Source of the DNA: Geosiphon pyriformis uo1
Taxonomy: Eukaryota; Fungi; Glomeromycota
Assembly (NCBI GenBank): GCA_016748015.1
Contig: JAAOMT010000348.1
Coordinates: 37,171-101,170, forward strand
Length of the DNA stretch: 64,000 nt
Direction of reading: 5' to 3'
Positions 7,700 to 57,609 of the stretch are shown piece after piece (position 1 is the first letter of the stretch; every line of letters begins with the position of its first letter). Position numbers and translations under genes: made by a program. The notes below the pieces were generated by a model. It saw nothing but the letters and a program-made list of their open reading frames with translations, was not told the origin of the DNA and ran no database searches.

Positions 7700-7701
7700 T
7701 T

Positions 7702-16881: not shown

Positions 16882-17588
16882 ATGATTATTCTCTGAAATA
16901 TTCAACAAATATTTCAAAAATTAATATTAGCTTTAAAAACACTTCCTGATTTATTCATAATAATTAATGGAAATCAAATTAATTACACTTAAAAAAAAAC
17001 CACAACACCAGTAGTAAATAATTTTCAAAATTATTATCCTTATAGAAAAAAAACAAAAGATTACTCTGGAAATCAATTACCAAAACTTTTGAAACAAGCA
17101 CTAAAAGAAAACTTTTTATTTGCTCCTATTGACATTCTACCAAATGCCACAATCCAACAAAAACTTCTATTATTTTTAATGAACAAAACAATGAACATAC
17201 TCTTATTTATAGATATTTTCATATTAGAAAAACACTCTATGAATGAAAACTAGAACTTGAAGCAACCAACATTACTCCTGAAGCTATACAAAAACAAATT
17301 CACAATAAATTCAAGACAGCAGCTGAACCAACAAATACTTGCTACAAACTTAGAGCAGTATTTAGACTCTATGATTTATTCAATACTTGTGAAAACGTCC
17401 TACAAAATCTAATACTTCACCCAATAAAGATTCAATACATTGGAAAGCTTACAGAACTAAAATTTCAACAATTTTTAGACCAAATCACTTCAATTATCTT
17501 GGATTACTATTTTGACATTACAAATAGTGCTTAAACTTTGATAAAGTTCAGTCTTGAGGAGAAGATTATGTTACCAGTAGAATTTTAG
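16882..17588 (+). pseudogene. A1 accessory ORF3
   Basis: MIILxNIQQ...LRAVFRLYDLF...IQYIGKLTELKFQQF; homologous to 34878-35597. Confidence 0.75.
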
Positions 17589-18532
17589 CTATTAATTAGC
17601 ATAAAATTACTCTCATAATTCCTATTATTAATTAGCATATATTATTATTATTTCGATTATCACTTATTATTTAATCAAATTATCAAATATTATTATTTAA
17701 TTAATAACCCGATTTGTATTATAAAAATTAAGATGATCAAATTACACAATATCCTAAACCATTTAATATAGTTAAAATTCGCCGAAATTGATGAAAATTC
17801 GCCAAAATAATCATTAGTTTGTAGAAATAACTTGTAGTTTACCAAAATGTATCTTTAGTTTGCCAAAATTAAAGCAAAGAAAAAAGTGCAAGTTCAAAGA
17901 CTAGTACTACAACAAGTTGTATAAAAAAAAAGCTTTTCTCTTCAAAAAAATATATCTTCTTATATCATAGCATAGTATTTTATTTTAGATATCTTAATTA
18001 TAACAAATCATCTTTTACACATTCAAATAAAAATTAAATATTCAAAAACCAAATTTTTAAATTATTACACTTGAAATTCTCTCAACACAACTAACGTTTT
18101 GAAATTGATTAGCTACCAATATCAATAAACTGTTAGTGACTCCAGGTCTGGATAGAAAACGTTTCTCTTGACAGAATTCTATTTTTTTTACATTTCTTTT
18201 ATTTTTCTTTTATTTTTTTATTTACAATTATTAGGGTAGCCTACAGATAAGATTTCTATAAAAGAGTTGACTTTCACAGCAAAGTACAATTTTAGTGAGC
18301 TTTTAGATAAGCAATTCCTGGGAAAGAGTTGATGTTTACTACAATGTAATTACACAAAGTAACTGGCACGGAATTGGCCATTTCACTTATAAGTCCAGCA
18401 GTTCAAATTATAGGAGATAATTTAAAGATAAATTTAGTTATTGGAGATTTAACTGCTTCCAGAAAACGTGAAATTAACAACAGACAAACAGTAACAACAT
18501 TCAAGAAAAAAGACCAAAAACCTCTAATAACA
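17569..18532 (+). repeat. Family A 3' LTR of A1
   Basis: TGTTACC...AATAACA directly after the PPT. Confidence 0.9.
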
Positions 18533-21500: not shown

Positions 21501-23542
21501 GAAGAGAAATAATTGATATAGAATACATAGAAAATATCATTGTCATGCTACAAAATAATTCAAAAAAAGCCTATATTATAAAGCCAAATAAAAAGATAGC
21601 ACAGGCAATATTCTTACTTTTGGTAAAAATAGCTCAATTAGTTTCAGTGAGAAAAAAAAAAGAACTAGGTATCACAGCTAAAGGATTATAGAGATTCGGA
21701 GCAACAGGTAAGATAGATATACCAGTCAATATAACAGAGGAAGAAATTGTTGACAAAGAAGAAATTATCTTAACCCATCAATTAATTTTTATTTCACTAT
21801 ATGACCAGTATATGTTAGCCATAAAAAGGGAAGTAAAAGATCAAACTCAGTTGTTTAAAGCAGAAGCCATCATTTGCAAATTAGGAGAGATTGGACTCAC
21901 TAATCTCTACATATTAGCTAAAAGCCCCAAAAACATCAAAATTCCCATCTACAACACAACTGGAAAGGTCATCAAAATACCAAAGAAAACCATTATTAGA
22001 TATTTAACCACTGAAGTTGAAAATCAACCACCAAACTACATTCCAGATTTTCCACAGCTTTGTGAATATGTGGACATCACATTACAAACTATTTACAGAT
22101 GAAGCAAAAGTTATCTGCTCCAACCAGAACAATTGGAACAGATGAACATAAGAAATTTAGACCCACTCCAACAGATGCAACTAAAAATGTTACTCAACAA
22201 ATTCAATGACATCTTTGCCAGTAAAAACAAATTTGGCAGAACCAACATAATTCAGCATCAGATCAAGACTGGAGATACAATGCCAATTAAACAAAAAGCA
22301 TATTGAGTACCACCAGCCAGCCATGAGATTATTCATCAAGAAATCAATTGGATGTTAGACAATGGGCTAATTCAGTCATCAATGAACCTATGGTTATCAC
22401 CAGTGGTACTGGTCTATAAGAAAAATAGAAAAATCCGTTTTTGTGTAGACTACCAGAAACTGAATGGAGTGACAAAAGGAGACAGCTACCCAACTCCAAA
22501 AATTCAAGAGCTGTTTGACACTTTTGGAGGAAAAAAATTGTTTTCAACATTGAACTTAGACAGTGGTTATTGGCAAGTAGCCATAAAGCTAGAAAATAAA
22601 GAGAAAATGGTTTTTACAACACGAAAAAAGAATTTTGAATTTGAAGTAATGCTATTTGGCTTAATGAATGCTCCAGCAACATTTCAATGGCTTATAGAAA
22701 TTGTCTATACCAGGCTACTATGGAAATCAGTAGTCATATACTTGAATAACACTAATGTGTTCTCAAAAACATTTGATGATTATCTGCATCATTTCCAACA
22801 AGTATTTGAAAGACTCAGAAGAGCCAGATTGAAACTAAATGCAACTAAGTGTTTTTTTGAAAAAACTGAACTCAAGTTTTTGGGACATATTATAAGCAAA
22901 AATGGTATAAAAACGGATCCAGATAAGATTGCAATAGTAAAGAACTTTCTAGTACTAACTAATCTGACAGAACTAAGAGTATTTTTGGGATTTATAGGCT
23001 ATTATTGTCATTTTATTAAGGACTTTTCTAAACTGGCTCAGCCATTTCATCATCTACAAACTAAGAATGTCAAGTATGAATGGACAGGAGCTCAACAAAA
23101 AGCATTTGACACACCAAGACAAAAGCTTATTCAAGCTCTAGTGTTAATGTATCTAGATTACAGCAAACCATTCATCATCACCACTAATGCATTAGGCCAA
23201 ACATTAGAAACCGTACTATTACAGAAAGAACCAGATAGAAGAAAACATCCAGTAGTTTATGCCAGTAGAAGCTTAAGTTCAGCTAAAAAAAACTATGAAA
23301 CTTCAGCACTAGAGCATTTAGCAATCTATTGGGCTGTCACCAAATGGAAAAAATACTTAAGCCAAAAGTTTAATATATATACTAATCACAAAGGGTTGAC
23401 TTCAATCCAGAAGCAAGAATTTGGAGATGATTGTTATGCAAGATAGAAAATAGCACTATCACCATATAAATTTATAGTACATTATAAAAAGGGAAAAGAC
23501 AATAGAAATGCTGACAGTTTGTCACGAATAAGACAAATCTAA
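18533..23542 (+). pseudogene. B3 ORF1: Gag-PR-Cys-rich-dUTPase-RT-RNase H
   Basis: RT motifs RFCVDYQKLN, FSTLNLDSGYWQ, FGLMNAPATFQ, FLGHII; RNase H PVVYASR, LEHLAI; ends LSRIRQI* at 23540-23542. Confidence 0.9.
21285..21709 (+). pseudogene. dut: dUTPase domain of B3
   Basis: DAGFDL, ASRSNL, IIDxxY, KIAQAIFL, FGATG correspond to the five trimeric dUTPase motifs (decayed). Confidence 0.85.
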
Positions 23543-23574
23543 AAACATTTCAACCCAAAAAATATAACAAAAAG

Positions 23575-24957
23575 ATAAATACACAAAAATACCAACAACT
23601 TCAGCATTATATAAATACCCAATTGTTTAAGGAGAAATTATTTCAAAAAGAACAAAACAACATAAAACAGCAATCAAAATATTTTATCAATCATCAAAAT
23701 ATATTTTCCCAAAAAAACCAAAAAAATTTAGACCAACCAACCAGAGTGATTACAGAACCAGAAAAAGAAACAATACTGTTCAATATGCACTCAAATCCAA
23801 CAGCAGAACATTTTTATAAAGAAACAACCATGGAAAGAACTAGAAAAAGATATTATTGGCTATTAATGTATCCAGATATTATCTAATATGTTCAAAATTG
23901 TAATGCTTGTCAGAAAAAAGGAGGAACAAGACCCAGTAAATCATTAAGATGAATCAAAGTGAAACAACCATTCAATCATATCGGAATTGACTTAGTCAGA
24001 CCATTAACAATTACCAGTAAAGGCAACAAATATATTGTGATAGCCATGGACTATCTCACTAAATGGCCAGAAGCAAAAGCCATTCAAAGAGCAGATGCAG
24101 AATCTGTTGCTAAATTCTTTTATCAAGACTTAATCTGTTAACACAAATATTCAAAAGAACTATTATCAAATCAAAGAACTCATTTTGTGAATAGAACATT
24201 AGAAGAATTAAGTCAAAGATTTGGAATTAAAAGACCATTGTTATCATCATACTATCTACAAACCAATAGATTAGTTGAAAGATTCAATAGAACATTGTGG
24301 GAAGCAATTGCCAAAATCAGCCAAAAAAATCAAAATAAATGGGATTTGTTCATATCATCAGTATTATTTGCTTACTGAACAATAAAGCAAGATACTACAC
24401 AAACAACACCATTTGAATTAGTATATGATAAGACAGCAACACTACTAGTAGAGATAAAAGTATGAACATATCCAAAAAAACCAATAACAGAAGAAAATTT
24501 CCAAAGAACATTGTTGAGAAAAACGTATGACCTAATAGAAACACTAGAAAACAGACAACAAAAAGCAGCTGATAATATCCAAAAGTCACAAGAAAAGCAA
24601 AAAGAAAGACATGATAACCAACTATCAGAGAAACCAGTTGAATTCAAGATTGAAGACAAAGTACTTCTACATTGTACCAAAGCAGAAAAACAATAGAGTA
24701 GAAAATTTGACCCCAAATGGGACAGACAATTTTACTTAAAAGAAATTCTTAGAAATAGAGCTTATAAATTAAGGTTGAACAACAAAATTTTAACCAAAGC
24801 AGCATATGGTAATCAACTGAAACAATATTACCATATAGTATCATTATCTATCAGTAATATTCCACAACTAAGAGTACAGAGAATACTAGTTAAACCAGAT
24901 GAGATTCTATAAGATTTAGAACCAATTATAATCATTGAACCAAACACATAAAATTGA
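23575..24957 (+). pseudogene. B3 ORF2 integrase
   Basis: MHSNPTAEHF...CNAC (HHCC), GIDLVRPL, MDYLTKWPEA, QTNRLVERFN, LEPIIIIE. Confidence 0.88.
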
Positions 24958-33927: not shown

Positions 33928-34909
33928 TGTTACTGGAGGTTTTTGGTCTCTTTTCTCGAATGTTGTTAATGTTAATTTTGTTGTGAATTCATGTTTCCAG
34001 GAAGTAGTTGAACCTCCAGTAACTGAATTTTATCTTCAAATTATCTTCTATAATTTGAACTGCTGGGCTTATAAGTAGAATGACCAATTTTTTGCCAGTT
34101 ACTTTATGTAGTTATGTTGTAGTAAACATCAACTCTTTCCCAGGAATTGCTCGTCTGGAAGCTTACTAAAAATATGTGTAGTTACTTTGCTGTGAAAGTC
34201 AACTCTTCTACAGGAATCTCGTCTGTAGACTACCCTAATGATTGTAATAAGAAAAAAAAAGAAATATAAAAGAAATATAAAAGAAATAGAATTTTATAAA
34301 GAGAAACGTTTTTGATCCAGGCCTGGAATCACTAACAGTTTATTGAAATTGGTAGCTAATTAATTTCAAAATGTTAGTTGAGTTTTGGGGATTTTCCAAG
34401 TGTAATAATTAAAGAATTTGGTTTTTTAAATTATTTGATATTTATTTCTTTTGTGTGTGTAGAAATGGTTCTAAGTGATAAATCTAAAGTAAGATACATT
34501 TTCTCGAAGAGAGAAACTTTTTTTTTATACAACTTGTCATAACATTATTCTATGAACTTGAACTTTGCTATTTTCTACAATTTTGCTGAACTAAAGATAT
34601 ATTTTGGCAAACTACAAGTTATTTCTGTAAACTATTAGATATTTTGGTGAACTATCAATTATTTCGGCAAATTTCTATAAATTTCGGCAAATTTTTGAAT
34701 GTTACATAGTTCAGGGTATTGCATGATTGATCATCGCAATTAGGTTACATTTGTGTTGTGTACAATTTGGGTTATTAATTAAATGATAATTTCGGACATT
34801 TTTGCTAATGTAATGAATGGTAATTTGAAATGATAATATATGCTAATTACTGATAAGAATTATAAGATAGTTTCATGCTAAATAATATCTCTAATTTTGT
34901 CTGATAACA
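33928..34909 (-). repeat. A2 3' LTR
   Basis: TGTTACT...GATAACA on + strand, adjacent to the PPT complement TAACCTCCTCTTC. Confidence 0.95.
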
Positions 34910-35597
34910 TAACCTCCTCTTCAAGACTGAGCTCTATCGAAATCCAAGTACTGTTTGTTATTTCCAGATAATAATCCAAAATTATTGAAGAAATTTGGTC
35001 TGAAAATTGTTGAAATTTCAGTTCTGTGAGCTTTCCAATGTATTGAATCTTCAAAGGTTGAAAAATTGGGTTTTGTAGTACGTTTTCACAGGTGTAGAAT
35101 AGGTCATAAAGTCTAAGAGCAGCTCTGAGCCTGTAGCGACTGTTTGTTAATCCAGCTGTTGTCTTGAATTCGTTGTGGAGTTGTTTTTGAATAGCTTCTT
35201 TTGTGAGGTTTGCTGTTGTAAGTTCCAGTTTTCATTTGTAGAGTGTTTTTCCAATGTGAAAATATCTATAGATTGGAGGATATTCAGTGTTTTCCTCATT
35301 GAGACACAGTTGAAGTCTTTGTTGACTTGTAGCATTTGGTGGAATACTAATTGGAGTGAGCATTAGATTTTCTCTTAAAGCAAGCTTTAAAAGTTTTGGC
35401 AGGTGAATTCCAGTATAACTTCTTGTGTTCTTTTTATATGGGTGATATTTTCGTGAATTTGGGGCTAAATTTGTAACTACTTTTGTTTGGGTATAATTAA
35501 TGTGGTTTTCAGTAACAATAATGGATAATTTGTGTATTGTTTTTAAAGCTAACATTAGTTCTTGAGATAATTGTTGAATGTTTTGAGGAATAGTCAT
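34878..35597 (-). pseudogene. A2 accessory ORF3, 239 codons with a single internal stop
   Basis: MTIPQNIQQLSQEL...YFHIGKTLY(K*K)LEL...LRAALRLYDLF...IQYIGKLTELKFQQF...; one TGA at 35232-35234; frame runs through the PPT into the LTR. Confidence 0.8.
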
Positions 35598-35718
35598 TAT
35601 AAGCAATTTGAAATAAAAGAAAATTATTTTTGGTGCATGGGTTTTTATGTTATTTTTGTTTTGTTTTTGTGAGATTGTTTCTAAATTATAAGAAGATAAC
35701 TATAATAATAAATTTAAA

Positions 35719-37103
35719 TTAAGTGTTCAAGTTGGGAGACTGTTCAATGACAACTATTGGTTCTAAATTTCAGAGAATGTCTTCGGGATTGATTAAAAAA
35801 GAATGTGTACCAATTTGTGAAATTAATGGCTCATAATTGTTTCTGGAATTATAGTGTTTCAAATGATCTCTATGTGCAACTTTTGCTAGAATTTTGTCAT
35901 CAAGTCTTAGCTTGTATGATCTGTTGCCTAAAACTTTATGGATAAAGAATAGTCTATCCCATTTATTTTCAAATTTTCCACTCCATTGTTTTTTGCTTTA
36001 GTTCTGTGTAAGAGAACTTTGGTTCCAATTTTAAATTTATTAGTAACTGAAGGCAATTTGTCATTATGCCATTTTTTTTGTTGAGCTTGGGAGTGTTCAA
36101 TATGGGTGGCTGCTATTCATTGTTTTCTTTTCAATGTGCTAAGCAGAGTGTAGGCTCTTTGTTGAAGCATTTCTTGGAAATTGTTTTCATCAATTGGTTG
36201 TGCTGAGTATGTTTCCACTGTGAAACTAATTGGTAACGTTGCCGTTTTTCCGTAAGTTAAATCAAATGGTGTGTGTTTTGTGGTATCTTGTTTTAGTGTC
36301 CTATACGCTAATAACACTAATGGAATAAAGAGATTCCATTCTTGCTCAAAATCGGTTGAAACTTTAGCTAATGATTCACACAATGTTCTGTTGAACCGTT
36401 CTATTAGTTCATTTGTTTGTAGATAATAGGGTGAAGATAATGGTCTCTTGACATTAAATTGTCTACAAATTTCCTGGATTAAATTGTTCACAAAATGTGT
36501 TCCTTGATCAGATAAAAGTTTTATTGGGCATCCATGTCTACAAATGATGTCTTCATAGATGAAGTTTGCTATTGATTTTGCATCTGCCCATTGAATGGCT
36601 CTGGCTTCAGGCCATTTGGTGAGATAGTCTACGGCTATTGCAATATAGTGGTTTTCTTGGTTTGTGATAGGTAGTGGTCCAACTAAATCGATACCAACTC
36701 TGTCAAAAGCCTGTCCAACTTTGATTGGGTTTAAAGATTCTGTAGGGTGAGTTCCTCCTCTTCTTTAACAACTATTACAAGATTCAACATATTTGTGAAT
36801 GTTTTTTTTCATTCGAGGCCAAAAGTAGTATTCTAGTGTTCTTTGGGTGGTGCTGTCTTTTCCGAAGTGGGCTGATAAAGAATCTGAGTGCATGTTGTAT
36901 AATATAGTCTCTTTTTCTTGTTCTTGTATTAATCTGAGTGGTTTGTCTGAGTTTTTGAAATTTCGATAATAAATAATGTTGTTGTGTAGAAAATATTGTT
37001 TGGCTTGTTGTTGTAGTCAATGTTTTTCATTTGGAGACCAATCTGTTGGGATTGTTAATGTTTCTAAATATTGTTTGAGATTATTGTAGTTTTCTGAATT
37101 CAT
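35719..37103 (-). pseudogene. A2 ORF2 integrase with its own ATG
   Basis: MNSENYNNLKQYL..., MHSDSLSAHF...CNSC, GIDLVGPL, VDYLTKWPEA, SDQGTHF, ERFNRTL, LEPIVVIE. Confidence 0.9.
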
Positions 37104-37163
37104 TGTTTGTTGGCTCTTTTGGTTGGTTAAGTTGAGTGTTGGTTTTTGTGTTTTTTTTTTTTT

Positions 37164-40100
37164 CTAATCTTGTCTCATTCTGGAGAGACAGTCAACATTG
37201 GTGTGGAGTTTTCCTAGTTTGTGATGTACTATGTATTGGTAGTTTGTTAGAAATTCTGTCCATCGGGTTTGTTTTGCATTCAGCTAAGTATTTTTGTTCT
37301 GAAGCCATTTGAGTCCAATATTATCAGTGATAATATTGAATTCTTTAGGCTTGAGATAAAGGTTGAAGTGGTATAGGGCCCAAATTACGGCTGCTGTTTC
37401 TAGTTCTGTGGCAGGGTAGTTTTTCTCAGCTGGTTTTAATGTTCTGCTAGCATAAGCAATTACTCGCTCATTTCTGTTGTCATCTAGTTGTGATAAAATG
37501 GCACCAAAGGCAGTATACGAAGCATCTGTAGCTAATTGAAATTGGTTGCTGAAATCTGGGTAAGCAAGAATTGGAGCTGTTATCAGTTTTTCCTTGAGAA
37601 TTTCAAAAGCTTTTTGGTGTTCGGTAGTCTATTTGTATTTGACGTTTTTGGTGGTGAGCTGGTTGAGAGGTTTTGCAATTTCCGAGAATCCTTTAATAAA
37701 CTTCCAATAGTAGGATGCTAATTCTATGAATTCTCTTAGTTCTGTAGTATTTTGAGGAGTTTTGAAATTTTTGACAACGCTGATTTTTCCAGGGTCTGGT
37801 TTGATTCCATCTTTACTAACAATATGACTAAGGAAGATCAGGCTTGTTTTTCCAAAGTAGCATTTTTCAATATTGAGTTTTAGTTCTGCTTTTCATAATC
37901 ATTAAAAAACTTCTCACAGATGTTTTAAGTGTAATTCGAATGATGGAGAATAAACATTAGTATCGTCAAGATAAACAACTACTGACTTCCAAAGAAGTCC
38001 TTGGTACACAACATTCATTAATCTCTGAAATGTTGCTGGTGCATTGCATAATCCAAAAAGCATTACATTGAATTCGTAATTTCTGCCTTGGGTGGTGAAT
38101 GCTGTTTTGGGGTGATCTTTGAGATCCATAGCAACTTGCCAGTAACTGCTTTCTAAATCTAGTGTTGAAAAGTATTTGGATTTTCCAAGAGCATTTAACA
38201 TGTCATCAATCCAGAAAAGGGGGTAGGCATCTCCAATTGTAACACTGTTGAGTTGTTGATAGTCAACACAAAATTGGATCTTTCTATTTTTCTTTTTAAC
38301 TAGCACTACAGGTGAAGCCCAAGGACTCATAGAGGGTTGGATAAGCCCATTGTTAAGCATTCGTTGTATTTCTTCTCAGATGAATTGGTGGCTTTCTGGA
38401 ACAACTCGATATGCTTATTGTCTTCTTGGTTTGGCATCTTCTGTATAAATTTGGTGTTGGACTAAATTGGTTCTTCCTAAGTCATTGTTGTTTTCAGCAA
38501 AGATATCAGCAAATTCTGCAATTAGCTCTTTGAGCTGGGTCTGTTGTTGTGATTCAAGTTGTCCCATGTTAATTCGAGATAGTTTTTCCATGACAACATG
38601 GTAGTTTTCAGAGCTGGGATTTGAGTTGATTTTTGGTATTGAATGTCCAATAATTTCAGAGAAATCAGGGACTGTTTGGGGTAATTTTTGTTAAAATATA
38701 TTACTGTGAATAACTCCAATTTCTAAATTATTTAATAAAATTATGGGGTAATTATTGGGATTGTAAAAAGTAACTTGGACTTTCTTTGTTCCTTCTGGAA
38801 TATAAATATTTGGGATTGAAATATTATGTTCCAAGCAGACTTGTTCATTGGACTCAAAAATTTGTTGTGTGGTTGTTGGCTTTAGGCAGGTGTAGATTTC
38901 CAGATGTTCTCCAAAGAGTGAGATAGTAATCAGTTGTGGAAGTCTGAGAATCTGGTGAGATTTGTTCTGTGTATTAAGAGCTATATTAACTAGAACTGTA
39001 AATCGTCCAGTTGAACCAAAACCTTGGGTTCCTCTATTGCTTTTTCCTAATTGTTCTCTTTGATCAATTAGTTGCAAACCCAAAATATTGATTAAGGGTA
39101 GGTAAATAGCTTGAACAATTTTTTCAGCATGTTCAATCTTGAATAGTTTGTCAGTTTTGTTTTGAAGCATTACTGTAATGTCTCCAGTATATCCAGCATC
39201 AATTATTCCTCCTCTAACATTGATTTTTTTGCTTGCCAGAAAGAACCAGGAGGTGATTTGAACTATTGCTTCTGGCAGGATTTCGAGTGCAATTTTTAGG
39301 TTGATTTTTGTAAAGAATTTGGGTTTGAGAACAAGAGTATCCTTGCCTGGATATCTTAGGTCATATCCAGCATCAATTTTGTGTGCTTTTTCAGGTTTTA
39401 TTTCTTGTCCATTGTTGTTGAAGTATTTAAGTTGTAAGGCAGACTGATTTTCAATAAGATAGATAGGTGTTGTTTCACTTTCTTCTGTTGCTTCAGGTTC
39501 TCCAAATTCAATTTTGTTCTTATCATTTTTGCTGGGCAAGGGGATACTAAGAGTGTAGCATTCAGGACACCACTGTTCATCACAAGGCATAATGCATTCT
39601 TCACATAGCCTAATGTTTATTTGCTCTAATCATTGAATTTGAGCTTCTTGGATTGGGTAGGTGTGACTTGCAATTTGGTAGTAGACTTTTACTTCATCTT
39701 CGTAATTGAATCCAGCTACTTTCATGGTGTATTCAATGTATTCTGTTTCCTTCATTTGACAAACTTCTTCTTTGGTAGCTCCATTAATTAATGCCATTGC
39801 TAGATCAAAAATCATCTCAGCATCATGGGGGTAGTAATAAAGTTTGTTGAGAGCACTGTTGTATGTTGCATTAAAAGATGTTCTTCTTTTTACTTTTTCT
39901 GAAATTGATAAAGCATATTGGCAGGTCTGATTGCAGACTCCTCCTCTCATGGCTACATCAATCCAATTGTATTCTTCTGGTAGCATATCTCCACAAGTCA
40001 ACCAAGGGATGTTATCCCATTTTTCGCTCCTTTTTATTAGATGGCCCCATCATTCTCTGTAGCAAGCCTTGCAGTAATAACAAGTATGATTCTTATATTC

Positions 40101-42785
40101 TTCTTCAGGTGAAATGCGGGTTTCCATTGACGATAGTTTCTTGTGGCAGTCCTTACATTTAAGGGGAATATAGGGACGTTGTTTCCTTGGTTCGGGTTTT
40201 GAGTAAGGGATATTCCATCCAGAGGTTTTGGGTTTAGTGTGTGGGGTAAAATGTTTTTGTTCTGTTTCATCGGCCCAGTTGGACGTTAATCCAAGAGCCA
40301 TGAATGTTTCAATAAGGAGTTTTTTCTCTTCCAATTCGAATTCAAAAGCTGGGGCTTTTTCAGAGCATTTGTTGAATGTACCACAAGTGGCAAGTACCCA
40401 GGCATGTTGTCCTTGGTAGGAGATTGTTAACTCTTGTGTTTTCCAATTCAGATTAGCATTGGCTTTTTGAAGCCAATCATTTCCAACGAGAGCTTGGTAC
40501 TGGGGTGCATTCATTATAAGAACTTTGACTGGAATGGTGATTCCATCAAGAGTGAACAAAAAATTGTCAATTTCTCCTACTGGAGTCTTTTTCATGCCAT
40601 TGGCAGTGATGATTACTGTTTGAGCTGGTCAGTCAACATTTCTTTTCAACTGTTGCATTAACTGGTAGGTGATAATGCTTCTGGAGGATCCACTGTCTAG
40701 GATCAAGCAAATTGTCTTTTCTTTGACTTCAGCTTCAGTGTATATGGTCGTGATTGCTTTTTGTTCATTGGCAGCTGCATTGCTAAGCAGAAATGGTGAC
40801 TCATTTGCTTCGAACTCAAAAGGGAATATATTTGAAAGATTAGTGTTTTCAGCGATTCTGGCTGGTGAAATTGTGGTGGGAGTATAGGAAGGGTTTGGTT
40901 GTTGTTGTGCTGCAGCTCTACCTTCTAAGAGTGCAGTATAGTGAAAATCCTGTTCTTTCGGCATTGTTAAATAGCTGGGTTGAGTGTGGTAGTGGTTGAG
41001 TCTTGGCTGAGTGGAATTTCAGGGAACCAATTGGTTGTTCGAACTGATTCTATTGTTGTTTACTTGGTATCGGTTTTGTGATATGAATTGATTTTGTGTA
41101 ATCAGTCTTCGAGTAGATACTTGATAATATTGTGTAAGCAGTTGTTGGTATTGCTGTTGGATTGGCTATGGGGCTGGCTGATAATAGTTATTTTGGTATT
41201 GGAGTCTTGGTGGATAGTAAGTTGGTGGTGGTGATTGATAATAAAATTGTTGTGGTGGAGGGTAACGTTGATTACTCCTATTTTGTTGGTCTCATTGTAG
41301 CTTTCTGCAATCTCTTTTTCAGTGGTCAGAGATTCTACAGTAATGGCAATTCTGAGGCTTGTTATTGGAAAGTGGTGCAAAGTTATTTTGATTTCGTCTT
41401 TGGGGTGGTTGATATCTTTGGGGTTGCTGTTATTGTTGATTGGTGAAATAGTTTTCAACCTTTTTTGTGAGTTGGTCAATTTTTTTCTTGGCTGCTGAGC
41501 TGGTTTTTCCAATTGCCAAATTTACAAGTTTTGTGCGGTTGGCCTCTTCCATGACTATTTTGTATCTTTTCGCATGCTGTATGGCAGAGTTTAAATCTTC
41601 TGGTGCATATGGGCGAATCTTTTTAATTAGTTTATCTTTTAGACCAGTGATAAATTGATCCAAGATTTGAGCATCGGAATAATAATTGTTTGTTTTGAGT
41701 TGACAAATTTATCTGAGAAGTTTGTTGAATTTCCCAATATAAGTCATAACAGATTTGGGGGGTTCTTGTTTGATATTTTGAAAATGATTGCGAAGGGTGA
41801 TGGAGGTATTATTGTCGGTGAACTGTTCAAGGAAGACTGCTTTGAAAGTGTTCCAATTATTGAATGGGGCGGCCAAGTTTTCAAACCATTCTCCTGCTGT
41901 TCTTTTAAGAAAGTAGGGAATTGTTCTTAATATTCTGGCAGCATTCCATCCATTTGCATCTCCAGTTTTAGTAATTTGGTCGAGCCATTTTTGGGGACTG
42001 GTCTTAATATCTTTTCCATTGAATTCAGGGATTTTTGCAATGTATGTTGTCATTTTGTCTTCTTTCTTTTCACTGTCTATTGATTCTTCTTCAGTTATTT
42101 CAGAGTTGTTTTCTTTGTTTGCTGCTGTCTCAGAGTGTTCACTTTGATTTTCAGCTAGAAAATCAAGGAGATTGGAACTAGTTTGAAGGGGTTCTTGTTG
42201 TCTGATGAGACTTCTGAGTGCTGTAAAATCTTCTGGTCTTGCAAATCGATTTAAGGGTGAATTAGGTATTTGTGCTTGTGCAAGTGAAGCTGGAAAAGGT
42301 GTAATAGTAAGTGGAAGTTTTGAACTGGTTTCTTGTTCAGATGTTTGTAAATGGTTGGCAGTTGTTTTCGGTAGTGTTGGAATATTTGGGGTGGTTCTTG
42401 AGTATTGCTTCAATTTGTTTTTGCCTTTGTTGTTTGTTTCTGTTTCTGATTCAAAATCAATAGTGTATTGAGACTGCACTGGATATGTTTCTTCACAGTA
42501 TTTAATAATGTTGAAATTAAGTTTATGAAAGTAAATGGCAAGTGTTTCACTGTTAAGGTCTTTAGTTCCCAACTGTGAATAGTGTGCTAAATTATTGTAA
42601 AGGTTGCTTCTAACTTCTGAGATATTGTAATTTTCAAAAAGATAATTGTTGATGCAGTTTTCAATGTATTGGTATACTGATTTCTTAACAACTTCAATTC
42701 TGTCTGGAATGTTGAATCTTTGCTTGCAGTGGGTGTAAATTGATTGGTAATACTCTAGAGTTGTGGTGTCTGGTGTGGTTGCCAC
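37164..42785 (-). pseudogene. A2 ORF1: Gag-PR-Cys-rich-dUTPase-RT-RNase H, single frame of ~1874 codons with point stops
   Basis: ORF-track fragments starting at 42785, 41663, 40964, 40595, 40001, 39590 and 38360 share one frame; LILDSGS, YLDD, ATDAS, ends LSRMRQD*. Confidence 0.92.
39006..39431 (-). pseudogene. dut: dUTPase domain of A2
   Basis: DAGYDL, GGIIDAGYTGDI, EKIVQAI, RGTQGFGSTG. Confidence 0.93.
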
Positions 42786-42810
42786 TTTGAAGTTGTTTTT
42801 GCTGTGTTGT

Positions 42811-42828
42811 TTCCGTGAGAGAGCACCA
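42811..42828 (-). promoter_or_regulatory. Primer binding site of A2
   Basis: + strand TTCCGTGAGAGAGCACCA reads as a tRNA 3' end (T-stem half CCGTG, acceptor half AGAGAGC, A, CCA). Confidence 0.85.
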
Positions 42829-42830
42829 AA

Positions 42831-43813
42831 TGTTACTGGAGATTTTTGGTCTCTTTTCTTGAATGTTGTTAATGTTAATTTTGTTGTAAATTCACGTTTC
42901 CAAGAAGTAGTTGAACCTCCAGTAACTGAATTTTATCTTCAAATTATAGGAGATAATTTGAACTGCTGGGCTTATAAATGGAATAGCCAATTCCTTGCCA
43001 GTTACTTTATGTAGTTACATTGTAATAAATGTCAACTCTTTCCCAGGAATTGCTTGTCTGGAAGCTCACTAAAAATATGTGTAGTTACTTTGCTGTAAAA
43101 GTCAACTCTTCTACAAGAATCTCGTCTGTAGGCTACCCTAATGATTGTAATAAGAAAAGAAAAGGAAAAATAAAAGAAATGTAAAAGAAATAAGATTTTA
43201 TCAAGAGAAACATTTTTGATTCAGGCCTGGAGTTACTAACAGTTTATTGAAATTAGTAGCTAATCAATTTCAAAATGTTAGTTGAGTTTTGGGGATTTTT
43301 CAAGTGTAATAATTAAAGAATTTGGTTTTTCAAATTATTTGATATTTATTTCTTTTGTGTGTGTAGGAATAGTTCTAAGTGATAAATCTAAAGTAAGATA
43401 TATTTTCTCAAAGAGAAAAGCTCTTCTTTTATACAACTTGTCATAACATTATTCTATGAACTTGAACTTTGCTATTTTCTACAATTTTGCTGAACTAAAG
43501 ATACATTTCGGTGAACTACAAGTTATTTCTGTGAACTATAAGATATTTTGGTAAACTATCAATTATTTCAGCAAATTTCTATAAATTTCAGTGAACTTTT
43601 GAATGTTACATAGTTCGAAGTATTGCATGATTGATCATTGCAATTAGGTTACATTTGTGTTGTATACAATTTGGGTTATTAATTAAATGATAATTTCGGA
43701 CATTTTTGCTAATGTAATGAGTAGTAATTGGAAATGATAATATATGCTAATTAATGATAGGAATTATAAGATAGTTTTATGCTAAATGATATCTCTAATT
43801 TTGTCAGGTAACA
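42831..43813 (-). repeat. A2 5' LTR
   Basis: TGTTACT...GGTAACA adjacent to the PBS. Confidence 0.95.
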
Positions 43814-48780: not shown

Positions 48781-49763
48781 TGTTACTGGAGGTTTTTGGT
48801 CTTTTTTTTTAATGGTTGTTGATACTTGTTTGCTGTAAATTCACGTTTTCTGGATGTAGTTGAACCTCTAGTAACTGAATTTATCTTCAAATTATCTCCT
48901 ATAATTTGAACTGCTGGACTTATGAGTGGAATGACCAATTCTATGCCAGTTACTTTATGTAGTTACATTGTAGTAAACGTCAACTCTTTCCCAGAAATTG
49001 CTCATCTGGAAGCTCACAAAAAAATGTAGTTACTTTGCTGTGAAAGTCAACTCTTCTACAAAAATCTTGTCTGTAAGCTACCCTAATAATTATAGTAAGA
49101 AAATAAAAGAAAATAAAAGAAAAGTAAAAGAAATAGAATTCTGTCAAGGGAAACATTTTCTATCCAGGCCTGAAGTTACTAACAATTTTACTGAAATTGG
49201 TAGCTAATCAATTTCAAAACGTTAGTTGAGTTTTTTTTTGGAATTTTCAGGTGCAATAATTAAGAAAGTTGACTTTTTGAATTATTTGATTTTTATTTCA
49301 TTTTTGTAAGAACAATTCTAATTAATAAGTCTCAAATAAGATATCTAAAGGTAAAGAATACATTTTCTTGAAAAAAAAGGCTCTTCTTTTATACAATTTG
49401 TTGTAGTACTAGTCTATGAACTTGAACTATTTTCTTTACTATGGTTTTGACAAACTAAAGATATCTTTCGGTAAACTTACAAGTTATTTTTATGAACTAT
49501 TGAATATTTCAGTGAACTATTAATTATTTCAGCGAATTTCTACAAATTTCGGCAAACTCTTGAATGTTAAATGGTTTGGGGTATTGTGTAATTTGATCAT
49601 TTTACTTTCTATAGTACAAATTAGGTTATTAATTGATTGATAATATTCGATAATTTGATTAAATAATAAGTGATAATTTGAATGATAATATATGCTAATT
49701 TAATAGTAGAAATTATAAGGGTAATATTATGTTAATTAATATCTCAAGTTTTGGTTGGTAATA
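48781..49763 (-). repeat. A3 3' LTR
   Basis: TGTTACT...GGTAATA next to the PPT complement. Confidence 0.92.
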
Positions 49764-50451
49764 TAACCTCTTTCTCAAGATTGAGCTCCATTGAATTCCA
49801 AGTACTGTTTGCACATTCTAGATAGTAATCCAAAATTACTGAAAAAATTTGGTCTGAAAATTGTTGAAATTTCAGTTCTGTGAGTTTCCCAATGTATTGG
49901 ATCTTTAGTGATTGTAAACTTGGGTTTTGTAGGACATTTTTACAGGTGTGAAATAAGTTATAAAGTCTAAGAGCTGCTCTAAGTTTGTAGCAACTGTTTG
50001 TTGGTCCAGCCGTTGTCTTAAATTCATTGTAGAGTTGTTTCTAAATGGCTTTTTTTGTAAGATTGGCTGTTGTGAGTTCTAGTTTTTGTTTATGCAGTGT
50101 TTTTCCAATGTGAAAATATCTATAGATTGGAGGGTATTTATTGTTTTCTTCATTAAAACACTGTTAAAGTTTTTGTTAAATTGTGGCATTTGGTAGAATG
50201 TCAATAGGTGAGAGCAACAAATTTTCTCTCAAGGCAAGCTTCAAAAGTTCTGGTAGGTAAATTCCAGAATAACTTCTAGTGTTTTTTTTATAAGAGTGAT
50301 AATTTCGTGATTTTGGGAATAAGGTTGTGGCTGTTTCTGTTTGAATATAATTAATATGTTTTCTTGTAATAGTAATAGATAATTCAGGTATTGTTTTTAA
50401 AGTTAACATTAGTTTTTGGGATAATTGTTGAATGTTTTGTGAAATAGTCAT
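49744..50451 (-). pseudogene. A3 accessory ORF3
   Basis: MTISQNIQQLSQKL...LRAALRLYNLF...IQYIGKLTELKFQQF. Confidence 0.78.
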
Positions 50452-50570
50452 TATAATGATTTTTAAGAAACTAAAAATTTTCCTAAGTGAAATTATTTTT
50501 GGATATGTGGATTTTTATGTTATTTTTGTAGGATTGTTTCTGAATTTTTATAGGAAAATAACTGTAGTAA

Positions 50571-51964
50571 TTAAGTGTTTAAGTTGGGAGGTTGTTCAAT
50601 AATAACTATTGGTTCCAAATTTCAGGAAATATCTTTAGGATTAATTAAAGGAGAATATGTACCAATTTGTGGGATTAATGGTTCAGGATGTGTTCTGGAG
50701 TGATAATGTTTCAATTGATCTCTATGTGCAACTTTTGTTAGTATTTTCCCATCAAGTCTTAACTTATATAATCCATTTCCTAAAATTTTGTGAACAAAGA
50801 ATAGTCCATCCAATTTATGTTCAAATTTTCTACTCTATTGTTTTTCAGCCTTAGTTTGATGTAAAAAAACTTTATTTCCAACTTTAAATTCGTTTGTAAC
50901 TGGTGGTAGTTTGTTGTCATGTCTTTTTTTTTATTGGGCTTGTGAATTTTTAATGTAGGTGGCTGCTATACGTCTTTTTTTTTCTAAAGTACTAAGAAGA
51001 ATATAAGCTCTTTGCTGAAGTGTTTCTTGTAAGTTTTCTTCTGTGATTGGTTGTACTAGATATGTTTTCACTGTGAATTCAATTGGTAATTTTGCTGTTC
51101 TTCCATAAGTAAGGTCAAATAGTATGTGTTTTGTTGTATCTTGTTTTAGTGTTCTATATGCTAGTAACACTGATAAAATAAAGATATCCCATTCTTGCTC
51201 AAAATCTGTTGAAATTTTGGCTAGTGATTCACACAATGTTCTGTTAAAATGTTCTATTAATCTATTTGTCTGTGGATGGTAAGGCGAAGATAAAGGTCTT
51301 TTGATATTAAATTATTTACAAATTTCTTGTATCAGGTTGTTCACAAAATGTGTTCCCTGATCGAATAAAAGTTCAATTGGGCATCCATGTTTACAAATAA
51401 TATTTTCATAGATAAAATTTGCTACTGATTTTGCATCTGCTCATTGAATAGCTCTGAGTTCAGGCCATTTGGTAAGATAATCTATTACTACTGCTATGTA
51501 TTAGTTTCCTTGCATGGTGATAGGTAGCAGTCCAACTAAATTGATACCAACTCGATCAAAAGATTGTCCAACTTTGATTGGATTTAAAGGTTCAGTAAAG
51601 TGTGTTTCTCCTCTTCTTTGACAACTATCACAAGATTCAACATATTGATGTATGTCTCTTTTCATTCAGGGCCAAAAATAGTATTCTAGTATTCTAGTAT
51701 TCTTTGGGTGGTGCTGTCTTTTCCAAAGTGTGCTGATGAAGGATCTGAGTGTATATTGTATAATATAGTCTCTTTTTTGTGTTTTTATATTAATCTGAGT
51801 AGTTTGTTTGTGTTTTTGAAATTTCAATGATAAATAATGTTGTTGTATAGAAAATATTGTCTGGCTTGTTGTTGTAATCAATGGTTTTCATCTGAAGACC
51901 AATCTGTTGGGATTGTTAATGTCTTCAAATATTGTTTAAGATTGTTGTAGTCTTTTGAATTCAT
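50571..51964 (-). pseudogene. A3 ORF2 integrase with its own ATG
   Basis: MNSKDYNNLKQYL..., CDSC, DQGTHF, DGLFFVHKILGNG. Confidence 0.88.
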
Positions 51965-52004
51965 TGTTTGTTGGTTGTTAGATTTGAGTGTTGATTTGTG
52001 TTTT

Positions 52005-55000
52005 CTAATTTTGTCTCATTCTGGAGAGACAGTCAACATTGGTGTGGAGTTTTTCTGGTTTGTGATGTACTACATATCAGTAGTTTGCTAAAAATCCTGT
52101 CTATTTGGTTTGTTTTGCATTCAACTTCATGTTTTTGTTTTGTAACCATTTGAGTCCAATATTATCAGTGATAATATCGAATTTCTTAGGTTTGAAATAA
52201 AGGTCAAAGTGGTGTAAGACCCATATTACTGCTGTGATCTCTAATTCTGTTGTTGGGTAGTTTTTCTCTGCTGGTTTTAATGTTCTACTTGCATAAACAA
52301 TTACTTGTTCATTGCTATTGTCATTTATTTGTGATAAAATGGCATCAAAGGCAGTATAAGAGACATCTGTGGCTAATCAGAATCGGTTGCTAAAGTCTAG
52401 GTAGGTAAGAATTGGAGCTGTAGTGAGCTTTTTTTTGAGTATTTTGAAGGTGTTTTGGTATTCCATCCATTTGTATTTGGTGTTTTTAGTGTTGAGCTGG
52501 TTAAGGGGTTTTGCTATTTCCGAAAATCCTTTGATGAATTTCTGATAATAAGAAGCTAATCCAACAAATTCTCTTAGTTCTGTGGTATTTTGTGGAACTT
52601 TGAAATTCTTAACAGCGCTGATTTTTTCTGGGTCTGGTTTGACTCCTTCTTCTCTAACTATGTGACCAAGAAAGGCCAAGCTTGTTTTTCCAAAATGACA
52701 TTTTTCGATGTTTAATTTTAATCTTGCTTTACGTAATCATTGAAAAACTTCTTACAGGTGAATTAGATGAAGTTCGAAAGATAGAAAATAAATGTCAGTG
52801 TTATTAAGATAGACAACTACTGATTTCCAAAAGAGTCTAGTGTATACAACATCCATGAGTCTTTGGAATGTTGCTGGCACATTGCATAATCTAAAGGGCA
52901 TTACATTGAATTTGTAGTTTTCTCATTGTGTTGTAAATGCTGTTTTAGGGCAATTCTTGAGATCCATGGCAACTTACCAGTATCCACTTTCTAAATCTAA
53001 TGTTGAAAAGTATTTGGATTTTCCAAGTGCATCTAACATATCATTGATTCAGAGAAGGGGGTAGGCATCTTCAATTGTGACATTGTTCAGTTGTTGATAA
53101 TTAACACAAAATCGGATTTTTCCATTTTTCTTTTTAACAAGTACTACTGATGAAGCCCATAAGCTCATTAATGGTTGGATGAGCCCATTGTTGAGTATTT
53201 TTTGAACTTCTTCTCGAATAAATTGGTGGCTTTCTGGGGCAACTCAGTATGCTTGTTGTCATCTAGGTTTAGCATTTCCTGTATAGATTTGATGTTGAAC
53301 CAAATCAGTTCTTTCTAAATCAATGATGTTTTCAGCAAATATGTCTGTATGTTCTGCAATTAACTCCTTGAGCTGATTCTGTTGTTGGGGCTTTAGTTGT
53401 CCCATGTTAATTTGGAATAACTTTCCAATAACAATGTGATAGTTTTCAGAGCTGGGTTTTGAATTGAATTTTGGGAGAGAATGTCTAATAATTTCCGAAA
53501 AATTCAAAACTGTTTGAAGTAATTCTTGTTAAAAGATTTTGCTATGAATAATTCCAATTTCCAAATTATTTAGTAAAATGATGGGGTGATGATTGAGGTT
53601 GTAAAAAGTAATTCGGACTTTTTTTATTCCTTTTGGAATATAAATGTTTAGAATTGAGATGCCATGTTTCGTGCAAATTTGTTTATTGGCTTCGAAGATT
53701 TGTTGAGTAGTGGTAAGTTTTCCACAGGTATAAATTTTGTGATGTTTTCCAAAGGGTGAAATGGTTATTGGTTGTAGAAGTCTGAAAATCTGGTGAGATT
53801 CATTCTGTGTATTGAAGGCTATATTAACTGAAACCATAAATCGTCCAGTTGAACCAAAACCTTGGGTTTTTCTCTCATTTTTCCCTAATTGTTCTCTTTG
53901 AATAACTAATTGCAAACCCGAAATGTTGATTAAGGGTAAATAAATAGCTTGAGCAATCTTTTCAGTGTGTTTAATCTTGAATGGTTTGTCAGTTTCATTT
54001 TGAAGCATTACTGTAATATCTCTAGTGTATCCAGCATCAATAATTCCTCCTCTTATGTTGATTCCTTTGCTTGCTAGGGAAAATTGGGAGGCAATTTGCA
54101 ATATCATTCTTGGTGGGATTTTAAGGGCAATTTTTAGATTAATTCTCATAAGGGATTTTGGTTGAAGAATGAGGGTATCTTTTTCTGAATATCTTAAATC
54201 ATATCTAGCATCAATTTTGTGGGCTTTCTCAGGCTTGATTCCTTGTCCTTTATTGTTGAAGTATTTGAGTGTTATAGCAGGTTGATTTTCGGCAAGATAA
54301 ATAAGAGTTACTGGGACTTTTTCATCCTGTATTCTAAATTTGATTTTGTGCTGGTCATCTTTAATTGGTAGTGAGATGCTAAGAGCATAGCATTCAGGAC
54401 ACCACTGTTTATCACAAGGCATAATGTATTCTTCACATAGCCTAATGTTTATTTGCTCTAATTATTGAATTTGAGCTTCTTGGGTTGGGTAGATGTGACT
54501 TGCAATTTGGTGGTAAACTTCTATTTTATCTTCGTAATCAAATTCAGCTAATTCTATGATGTATTTAATGTATTCTGTTTCCTTCATTTGATGGACATCT
54601 TCTTTGGTAGCTTTATTAATTAATGCCATTACTAGGTCGAAAATCATCTCAGCATCATAGAAGTAGTGATAAAATTTGTTAAGAGCACTGTTATATGCTG
54701 CATCAAAGAATGTTCCTCTTTTGACTTTTTTTGAAATTGATAAAGCATATTGGCAGGTTTGATTGCAGACTCCTCCTCTCATTGCTACATTAATTCAATT
54801 GTATTCTTCTGGTAGCATATCTCCACAAGTCAAACAAAGAGTGTTGTCTTATTTTCCACTTTTTTTTATTAGATGGCCCTATCGTTCTCTGTGGCAAGCC
54901 TTGTAGTAATAACAAGTATGATTTTCATATTCTTCTTCAGGTAAAATGCAGGCTCCCATTAATGAAAATTTTTTGTTATAATCTCTGCATTTAAGTGGAA

Positions 55001-57563
55001 TGTAGAGTAATTGTTTTCGTGGTTCTGGTGTAGAATATCTAACTTTCTTCCATCCTCTTGATTTTTCAAAGATTTCTTGTTCTGTTTTCTCAGCCCAATT
55101 GGATGTTGATCCAAGAGCCATGTAGATTTCAGTAAGTGGCATTTCTTTCTCTTCTTCAAATTCAAGTACTGGAACTTTTTCTGATTGTTTATTGAAAGTT
55201 CTACACGTAGCAGATACTATGATGTGTTGTCCTTGATATGAAATTTTTAATTCTTGAATTTCCCAATCTAAATTTGCATTGGTCTTGAGAAACCAATCAT
55301 TTTTGATGAGAGCTTGGTATTGGGGTGCATCCATGACTAGAACTTTAACTGGAATAGTGATTCCATCAATGGTGAATAGAAAATTATCAATTTTTCTTAC
55401 TGGTGTCTTCTTCATACTATCTGCTGTAATGATAACAGTTTGAGCTGGTTTGTCAACAGTTTGTTGAAGCTGTTGTATTAATTGGTAGATAATAATACTT
55501 CCAGCAGATTCATTGTCTAATATTAAGCGAATTGGTTTTCCTTCTACATCAGCTTCAGTATACATTGCTGTAATAGCTTTTTGTTTGTTAACTGCTACAT
55601 TGCTGAGTAGAGATGGTAATTCATTGGCTTCAAATTCGAATGGAAAGATGTCTGAAAGATTGGTGTTCTGGGCAATTCTGGCTGGTGAGATAGTATTGTT
55701 GGAAGAGTTTTGTCTTGGTGCTGCAGTTTTACTTTCAAAAAGTGCAGTTTGCTGAAAATTTGATTTCTCTGGTATTGTAAGATAACTGGGTTGAGTGTGA
55801 TAGGGTGTGGGTCTATGTTGATTCGAATTTTGAGTGGTTAATTGGTTGTTGAAATTAAATCTGTTGTTGTTTGTTTAAAAACGGTTTTGTGGTGTAAATT
55901 GATTATGTTGAATCAATTTTCTAGCTGGCACTTGATATTGTGGTGTAGATGGTTGTTGATACTGTTGTTGGATTGGTTGTGGAGCAGATTAATAATAGTG
56001 GTTTGAATATTGTGGCCTTGGTAAATATTGAGCTAGTAGTAATAGATAATATAATTGTTGTAATTGAAAATAATGTTGATTATTCCTCTGTTGTTGGTCT
56101 TGTTGCAATTTTCTACAATTGTATTTCCAGTGTCTTGGAATTCCACAATAATGACAATTTTGGATTTGGTTGTTGGATGGTGGTCCGAAGTTATTTTGAT
56201 TGTGTCATTGTGGGGGTTGGTATCTTTGTGGTTGTTGTGATTGCTGTGGCTGTTGTTGTTGTTGTTGGTTGGTAAAGTAGTTTTCAACTTTTTTGGTTAA
56301 TTGGTCAATCTTTTCTTCAACTGCTGAGCTGGTTTCTCCAATAACCAGATTAACAAATTTGGTATGGTTGGCTTCTTCCATGGCCATTTCATAGTTTTTT
56401 GCCTGTTGAATAACAGTGGCTAAATCTTCTGGTGCATGTGGGCAAACTTTCTTGATAAGTTTGTCTTTTAGTCCAACAATGAATTGATCCAAAATTTGTG
56501 CATTGGAGTAGTATTCATTTGTTTTCAATTGGTGAATCCTTCTAAGCAGTTTGTTGAATTTCCCAAGATAGGTTATAACTGATTCACTTGGTTCTTGCTT
56601 AATATTTTGGAACCAATTTCGAAGGGTAATGGAAGTGTTATTGTTAGTAAACTGTTCTAGGAAAGCAGTTTTAAATGCTTCCCAGTTTTCTGGTGAGGCT
56701 TCCAAGTTTTCAAACTATTCGCCAGCTGTTCCTTGTAAGAAATATGAAATTGCTTTTAACATTCTGACAGCATTCCAACCATTTGTATCTCCTGCTTTTG
56801 AGACTTTGTCAAGCCATTCTTGAGGACTGGTTTTGCTGTCTTCTCCTGTGAACTCAGGGATTTTTGTGATATATGTGGAGGCCATTTCTTTTTTGTTTTC
56901 TGAGTCTTCTGTTTCTTGTTCTGATTCAGTCTTTTCACTTTAATTTTCTGCTAAGTAGTCAATAAGGTTTGTGCTGGTTAATATTGGTTCCTGTTGTTGA
57001 ATAGGGCTTTTGGGTGACTGAAAATCTTCTATTCTTAAAAACCAAATAAGTGGTAAGCTTGGTGTTTGTGGTTGAGCAAGTAAAGTGGAAAATGGTGTGA
57101 TTGAGAGTGGTAATTTAAAGCTGGTTCTTTGTTCTGGAGTTTGTAAATGTTTGGTAGTGGTTTTAGGTGTATTGGGAGTAGTTCTGAGTTTTTGTTTCCT
57201 TTTTTCTTTTCCTTCTTCTGTTTCCGATTCAAAACTAAAAGAAAATTTCTGTTCTACTGGATAATTCACTTCACAATACTGAATGATATTGAAGTTGAGT
57301 TCTTGGAAGTATGTTTTAAGTATTTGACTGTTAAAATCCTGAGTGTTTAGACGAGAGTAATGTATTAAGCTTTCATATAAGTTGTGTCTAACTTCTGAAA
57401 TGTTGTAGTTTCTAAGAAAATAATTGTTAATGTAATTTTCAATGTACTAATAAAGTGTTTTTTTGAATGTTTCAATTCCATCTGAGATGTTAAATCTCTG
57501 CTTACAGTGGGTGTAGATTGACTGATAATACTCTAGAGTTCTTGAATCTGTTTGAGTCGCCAC
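52005..57563 (-). pseudogene. A3 ORF1: Gag-PR-Cys-rich-dUTPase-RT-RNase H
   Basis: ORFs 56205-56705 (capsid), 54879-55565 (protease), 53529-54422 (dUTPase), 52377-52679; ends LSRMRQN*. Confidence 0.9.
53844..54269 (-). pseudogene. dut: dUTPase domain of A3
   Basis: DARYDL, SLASKGI, GGIIDAGY, EKIAQAI, QGFGSTG. Confidence 0.92.
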
Positions 57564-57609
57564 TTTTAAAGTTGTTGTCACTGTATTATTTTTGTAGAAA
57601 AGTACCAAA

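Follow-up and report, generated by a model that had tools for sequence, protein, structure and literature searches.

The window analysed here, a stretch of 64,000 nucleotides (nt) from contig JAAOMT010000348.1 of the fungus Geosiphon pyriformis uo1, is an AT-rich nest of decayed long terminal repeat (LTR) elements, among them Ty3/Gypsy retrotransposons whose integrase is encoded outside Pol by an open reading frame (ORF) of its own, a separation that is almost certainly real. It is exemplified by element A2 (33928..43813, minus strand), a full-length though decayed Ty3/Gypsy LTR retrotransposon bounded by the 4-bp flanks ATGG and ATGA, which differ by one mismatch. The A2 LTR length is 983 bp; the 5′ LTR (42831..43813, minus strand) has the ends TGTTAC...GTAACA, shares 92% identity with the 3′ LTR (33928..34909, minus strand), and is accompanied by a TGG resembling a primer-binding site 2 nt inside. 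ORF1 (37164..42828, minus strand), which has a putative start codon, is a single frame interrupted by decay stops only. It encodes Gag (41918-41637), protease (40736-40473), a Cys-rich insert without a Pfam match (~39630-40200) that lies ahead of the dUTPase, the dUTPase itself (39395-39006) between protease and reverse transcriptase (RT), RT (38297-37821), and, at its end, RNase H (37556-37239), all on the minus strand. The frame closes with a conserved TAG (37164..37166, minus strand) four codons past the xDxLSR motif and is followed by an A/C-rich spacer of 60 nt (37104..37163, minus strand) which contains no ATG and has no predicted fold. ORF2 (35719..37103, minus strand) then opens with its own ATG at 37103-37101 and, despite decay stops and one frameshift near 35990, is recognizable as an integrase comprising—from the N- to the C-terminus—an N-terminal helix, an HHCC zinc finger, a DDE core, and a C-terminal part.

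The original prediction had proposed that RNase H ends at a common stop codon in five copies from two Gypsy families, and this stop is indeed present in all of them, as TAA at 4259, 15293 and 23540 on the plus strand and as TAG at 37166 and 52007 on the minus strand. The LSR motif said to precede it stands in four copies and fails at 4259, where it has decayed to SLL*IRQI*. The predicted spacers of 28, 58, 32, 60, and 40 nt were likewise found, A/C-rich and with lengths that are not multiples of 3 in four of the five, and the integrase frame opens with ATG in A2 and A3, the three remaining copies having ATA at the corresponding codon. The A3 junction (51962..52007, minus strand) consists of TAG, a 40-nt spacer devoid of AG, and an ATG at 51964-51962, and that of A1 (15293..15356, plus strand) of TAA, a 58-nt spacer, and ATA. 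Family B contributes copy B2 (junction 23540..23577, plus strand: TAA, 32-nt spacer, ATA), in which RT-RNase H spans 22127-23539 and the integrase, from 23575, is followed by a decayed ORF3, and the heavily decayed copy B1 (4259..4292, plus strand: TAA, 28-nt spacer, ATA). Reading these ATA codons as decayed ATG agrees with the retention of Met at this position in relatives and with the observation that 3 of the 13 A2 ATG codons read ATA in A1. Eight internal stops in the RT-RNase H region of A2 served as a chance control; two are common with A3 and none with a family B copy. Unlike these internal decay stops, the terminal RNase H stop is common to all five copies across the families. CpG observed/expected is 0.18 across the window and the copies are heavily deaminated, with many C-to-T and G-to-A stops, so that the window alone cannot exclude a decayed CAA or CAG codon.

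Intact relatives, known from fungi that form mycorrhizas and from soil, decide the matter. A protein search with the integrase gave 1030 matches among proteins of 204-650 residues. Among the best 120 of these, which were aligned, 96 start at a Met aligned with that of the window, 3 carry that Met after a short extension, and 21 start further in. Since gene callers begin at Met by rule, the informative part of this result is the fixed position of the start together with the lack of RNase H upstream. Longer proteins yielded 88 matches, only four of them close (42-48%) and all four NCBI models from Cetraspora or Rhizophagus; three of these are without the last part of RNase H and the beginning of the integrase, and P0128 has a distant RT. 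When RT was used for the search (120 matches), all 15 matches with at least 50% identity were without an integrase domain, 14 of them ending 0-5 residues past RNase H. Three R. clarus gene models (49% RT identity) use one join that skips xDxLSR and enters the integrase at residue 3. Natural intact copies occur in Rhizophagus irregularis or R. clarus, GBC53574.1 being an example. In mycorrhizal genomes, integrases of this kind are annotated as lone transposases or as ‘gag-pol fusion proteins’.

The same split, which the original prediction had suggested looking for in related genomes, is present at all 49 junctions that could be read on both sides among 80 metagenome loci (designated by L numbers); 5 further loci are without the integrase 5′ end and 26 without the RNase H end. 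A sense codon at the stop combined with an in-frame spacer, named at the outset as the configuration that would speak against a separate gene, was not encountered in these intact relatives: 0/49 junctions are fused and 39/49 are out of frame, and in 40/49 the RT-RNase H frame stays open over 400 codons or as far as the contig reaches. RNase H terminates with TAA in 25 cases, TGA in 14, and TAG in 10. The two frames overlap by 1-20 nt at 16/49 junctions and are parted by a 2-nt gap at one more, placing 17/49 within -20..+2. The count of 49 includes L024 and L051, in which a long RNase H tail with premature stops accounts for the gaps of 827 and 943, as well as L073, whose gap of 205 is due to a frameshift, the other reading giving -8. 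L002, the nearest of the intact relatives (62% identity in the integrase, tree support 99), shows a stop, a 24-nt A/C spacer, and ATG, and viral contigs contain distant integrases only (10 loci). Two further features of these loci may be recorded. RNase H carries an acidic C-terminal extension of 216-587 residues before the stop in L013, L028, L042, L056, L057, L074, and L075, mostly within the subgroup that also carries the RNA structure described below, and the spacers of L001, L003, and L006—the group nearest the named Rhizophagus integrases—have in common a GGAT(T/A)ACCC word ~25-30 nt ahead of the integrase AUG.

Some observations weigh against the separation. The loci were chosen by integrase likeness and include about six near-duplicate pairs. 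In seven gene models at NCBI, RT is joined to the integrase of this clade; five of them, including the three from R. clarus, skip the RNase H end, one passes from early RT into the integrase, and P0128 is unassigned. In favour of the separation, 157 contigs of sequencing run X1 aligned on the A3 junction contain no alternative letter at or above 3% at the stop or the ATG, a check limited by the fact that contigs drop rare variants and that X1 may be the window's own source. Alignments of runs X1-X3 at the A2 junction carry no information on the stop, as they skip the poly-A tract there, and X2 and X3 barely cover the junction. The split is lineage-wide.

Judged from their RT sequences, the split elements form one clade. 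In an RT tree, split rows lie on one side of a branch (47 versus 57 rows, Shimodaira-Hasegawa support 99), and a tree of a chosen subset separates 25 split from 27 fused rows with support of 96/98. The fused Gypsy sequences used for comparison were drawn from the same searches, and because most rows were found through integrase likeness, the clustering of split rows is partly a matter of choice. No fused form occurs inside the split clade except for three gene models, which were scored as split. All named members—Rhizophagus, Cetraspora, Entrophospora, and Paraglomus—belong to the Glomeromycota. The integrase tree leaves base and root unresolved, with support of only 58 for split versus fused. 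In fused relatives, a variable linker, mostly of 30-80 residues, lies ahead of the N-terminal helix, where the Met of the split integrases stands (measurable in 24/89), and we infer that the break sits where the protease would cut.

The predicted three-cistron plan, Gag-Pol without integrase followed by integrase and ORF3, is present in intact relatives. In A2, the decayed ORF3 (34878..35597, minus strand) crosses the polypurine tract with its 3′ end and runs into the 3′ LTR. Twenty-six natural ORFs located behind the integrase align as one family, which covers window positions 34878-35597 (minus strand), L021:1915-2364, L002:2456-3145, and 24 more loci; the L002 member matches the window ORF3 with an E value of 4e-14. 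These proteins of 140-270 residues are basic and all-helical in a confident model (pLDDT 92), and their reading frames often end in a polypurine tract. A TATA box lies 30-75 nt ahead of the ORF3 ATG in 16/25 loci (3.1 in shuffled sequences), the corresponding figure for internal ATGs being 23/210. No Pfam family was found in more than one of the 26 members, and no solved relative was found. The model has no Foldseek match at E 0.001, and its best VIA Z is 5.8, which does not by itself establish a new fold. An envelope fusion protein was considered and rejected, given an all-helical basic family with no Env match in Pfam.

How the integrase is made from such an arrangement is less certain. The spacers are depleted in start codons, 20 of them holding 4 ATGs compared with 11.3 in shuffles (2/500 shuffles being as low), A occupies position -3 in 26/37 non-overlapping integrase starts versus 113/350 internal ATGs, and residue 2 of the integrase is D, E, or N in 57/57. 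Together these features are strong signs that initiation would really take place at the integrase ATG. The geometry of the junctions, the start context, the contrast in TATA boxes, the absence of a splice signature, and the unlikelihood of recoding point, with roughly an even chance of being right, to an integrase gene that would be expressed from the full-length RNA by stop-restart after the Gag-protease-RT-RNase H stop. At the overlapping junctions of 17/49 relatives, a post-termination 40S subunit would restart at the overlapping AUG; at junctions of the window type, it would scan a short, unstructured, AUG-poor and A/C-rich spacer to an AUG in good context. Such a mechanism would give little integrase per Gag, a ratio which the single Gag-RT frame could not arrange otherwise. 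By analogy with foamy virus Pol, access of the free integrase to the particle or the cDNA would depend on its binding to genomic RNA or Gag and not on fusion. The structured RNA that precedes the AUG in one subgroup would be a candidate control or binding site, and ORF3 would likely be translated from its own TATA-driven mRNA.

Several findings tell against stop-restart. At 32-60 nt in four of the five window copies and 60-165 nt in many relatives, the spacers exceed the limit of ~20-30 nt of restart dependent on a termination upstream ribosomal binding site (TURBS). No fold signal was detected at 15 overlap junctions in the 90 nt before the stop (mean z +0.28) or after the ATG (-0.05), in a scan of pseudoknot-free folds, and no fold is predicted for the window spacers. 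A search near the junctions for a shared word that could serve as a 40S-holding element found only coding motifs. AUG depletion and a good start context would be just as compatible with the 5′ leader of a distinct mRNA, and a TATA box precedes the integrase in 13/53 loci versus 4.9 in shuffled sequences, partly by way of RNase H Tyr-Lys codons.

An RNA element of ~38 nt lies just ahead of the integrase AUG, once each, in 20 of 81 loci searched (L012:295-331, L024:1130-1166, L041:3763-3799, and 17 more loci). In 16 aligned copies, nine base pairs are kept in 144/144 cells with 19 two-sided changes, a number reached in 0/500 shuffles, and slid controls are 26-60% paired; the structure was read from the same sequences that were used to score it. 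The loops are nearly invariant and many unpaired bases are fixed. A pseudoknot of two pairs is compatible with the alignment and shows no two-sided change. Since the stability of the element does not exceed that of shuffles (mean z -0.14), covariation alone supports the structure. The element is lost in L054 and L056 inside its own subgroup and found in L041 outside it. It is not present in the window, by model or by pattern search, exact-pattern searches of prokaryote genomes and viral contigs did not find it either, and an Rfam scan of 10 whole loci gave two matches below the gathering score, neither of them on the element. It could promote ribosome entry, hinder it, or offer proteins a binding site comparable to the RNA signals for foamy virus Pol or hepadnavirus polymerase (PMC3705302).

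Three alternatives are of low probability. Decay as the origin of the stop (CAA/CAG to TAA/TAG), with the spacer as a rotted linker, has next to no probability: although C-to-T and G-to-A stops abound in the copies, the explanation is refuted by the 49/49 split junctions of intact relatives, decay stops are not common across the families (0/8), and the X1 contigs show no sense codon at the stop. A splice joining RNase H in frame to the integrase, or making a leader-integrase mRNA, is improbable. Its appeal stems from CTAAC and TTAAC words in the family A spacers and from the one join between RNase H and integrase residue 3 that is common to the three R. clarus models. However, the proposal that the CTAAC-like words contribute to a splice acceptor was not supported, as a branch point with YAG precedes the integrase ATG in 16/49 loci versus 17.6 in shuffles, 5/20 spacers lack YAG, and 3/20 lack AG, as does the A3 spacer. 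The joined models lose the conserved xDxLSR end of RNase H, the Asp of which is catalytic, and other models join elsewhere. Readthrough or frameshifting, which would still yield RT-RNase H-integrase, is unlikely because frames vary, additional stops occur in 7 of the only 10/49 spacers that are in frame, and none of the 49 RNase H stops carries UGA followed by CUA, a readthrough-type signal. In-frame spacers are seen in A2 (60 nt) and L002 (24 nt), and the UGA-CUA signal does occur after Gag or protease in six loci of the clade; with both other frames and all three stop codons represented at the junctions, the likelihood of this route is very low. The six in-frame UGA-CUA signals, four after protease and two after Gag (L005:2882, L008:870, L044:3290, L045:902, L075:3358, and L055:3552), fall in one subgroup.

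Two further routes would, like stop-restart, deliver a free integrase. A subgenomic mRNA for the integrase, started from a promoter inside RNase H or the spacer in the way that ORF3 seems to be expressed, is possible, if doubtful. Speaking for it are the TATA boxes ahead of ORF3 (16/25 loci) and, in a smaller share of loci, ahead of the integrase, the Tyr-Lys codon pairs of the RNase H motif, each of which (8/8) reads as a TATA box, and the leader-like spacers with their good start context. Yet no TATA box is present in 40/53 loci nor in any of the three family A copies, and a promoter gives no reason for the placement of 17/49 start codons on the stop. Internal ribosome entry, by means of the A/C-rich leader or the structured element of the full-length RNA and independent of upstream termination, appears rather unlikely. 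The covarying structure 0-11 nt ahead of the AUG in 18/19 loci and the enrichment of CAAC ahead of the AUG in loci devoid of the structure (20/35 vs 10.0) would be in keeping with such a mechanism. The structure is, however, absent from the window and from 61/81 loci searched, it ends 3-4 nt ahead of the AUG in 14/19 and would have to open for initiation, and overlap junctions require no entry site.

Element A3 (48781..58581, minus strand) is full length, follows the same plan as A2, and is flanked by the exact 4-bp target duplication GTGG. Element A1 (6750..18532, plus strand) is split by two solo LTRs of its own family (8173-9160 and 9511-10492), and no target duplication was seen for it. 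Exact 4-bp duplications flank A3 and three solo LTRs—CTGC at 8173-9160, CCAG at 9511-10492, and TTGG at 29658-30638—and one with a single mismatch (ATGG/ATGA) flanks A2. Further repeats, 66-70% alike, lie at 26461-27444 and 63009-63993, at 44034-44993 and 61066-62027, and at 58602-63560, accompanied by several ORFs of 110-240 codons from other decayed elements. The long ORFs listed at 3497-4093 arise artificially from an assembly gap of 402 N at 3654-4055.

By structure and domains, the element is Ty3/Gypsy. LTRs with TG...CA ends, Gag, the order protease-RT-RNase H-integrase, and target duplication are shared with Ty3/Gypsy elements such as yeast Ty3, the domains are of the Gypsy type by Pfam, the RT of the clade nests among fused Gypsy sequences, and among solved structures the integrase matches Ty3-G Gag-Pol best (E 4e-54). 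An integrase inside the Pol polyprotein is the Ty3/Gypsy standard (PMC3248453); in contrast, the elements described here have it outside (0/49 fused) and possess in addition a conserved ORF3. A dUTPase between protease and RT is also found in PosPlaTy3-5 (PMC2864245). As to the chromovirus trait, no chromodomain family is listed for any of the 120 stand-alone homologues, whose ends lie ~420-430 residues past the Met, and none is present in the first 371 residues of the A2 integrase. Errantiviruses bear env, whereas the ORF3 found here has no Env match. In AgCR of the CsRn1 group, a Gypsy element likewise has two ORFs parted by a spacer, of 60-165 bp, with the difference that the break falls between gag and pol and is always in frame (PMC2582038). 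No description of the split was found in the open literature, although Repbase reports, subscription journals, and supplements, which lay outside the scope of the search, could show it; the available text of PMC13468544, PMC4427930, PMC9963178, and 10.1101/2021.03.30.436303 does not describe it.

Stop-restart after long ORFs has been described in two fungal viruses, CHV1 and HvV190S, and in the retrotransposon SART1; in these systems, as in caliciviruses with their TURBS, stop and start overlap or lie near each other after a long ORF, and two of the systems work on fungal ribosomes (PMC10275272). Restart of the TURBS type needs stop and start within ~20-30 nt, and the described sites need RNA elements (PMC10275272). 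In contrast, the window spacers measure 28-60 nt, and the overlap junctions revealed neither a TURBS-like nor a folded element. DIRS/Ngaro elements also carry their integrating enzyme in an ORF apart from RT (10.64898/2026.05.21.726589), but that enzyme is a tyrosine recombinase, in place of the DDE integrase, direct LTRs, and target duplications seen here. Foamy virus Pol and hepadnavirus polymerase are enzymes separate from the capsid protein that enter particles via RNA signals and Gag contacts; there the whole of Pol is separate (from a spliced mRNA in foamy virus), here only the integrase (PMC3705302). Ginger1/GIN1 proteins resemble the integrases of this clade in being stand-alone and of the Gypsy type, with an N-terminal motif before the zinc finger and 4-bp duplications (PMC2836005), and clusters named GIN1 score 0.96 in the atlas. 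Ginger1 differs by its terminal inverted repeats of 40-270 bp and its lack of RT, the elements described here being LTR elements with RT-RNase H upstream (PMC2836005). Ginger1 prefers CCGG/CCGT duplications (PMC2836005), and GTGG, CTGC, CCAG, TTGG, and ATGG in the window could be CpG-decayed forms of NCGG/CCGN, a comparison that extends to five decayed sites only.

These relationships invite a broader and more tentative reading, in which an old, Glomeromycota-wide clade would be polycistronic and intermediate between LTR elements and Ginger, its integrase a free transposase translated by stop-restart or internal entry, its undescribed ~38-nt RNA, in one subgroup, a control element that doubles as the place where integrase or Gag takes hold of the genomic RNA, and ORF3 a helper protein with a new fold. 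LTR retrotransposons and orthoretroviruses package integrase by fusion to Gag through Pol. A large and old clade that lacks a Pol-fused integrase and still integrates implies that another delivery route exists, and a free integrase would have to enter the replication particle in an unusual manner. The natural variety of junctions—overlapping, with a short spacer, or with a structured spacer—makes them suited to testing reinitiation after an ORF of 1,200-1,600 codons on fungal ribosomes. For annotation, the finding means that mycorrhizal gene models mislabel these integrases or join them to RT, losing the RNase H end. It also bears on whether Gypsy integrases and Ginger transposases have moved between element types as a module.

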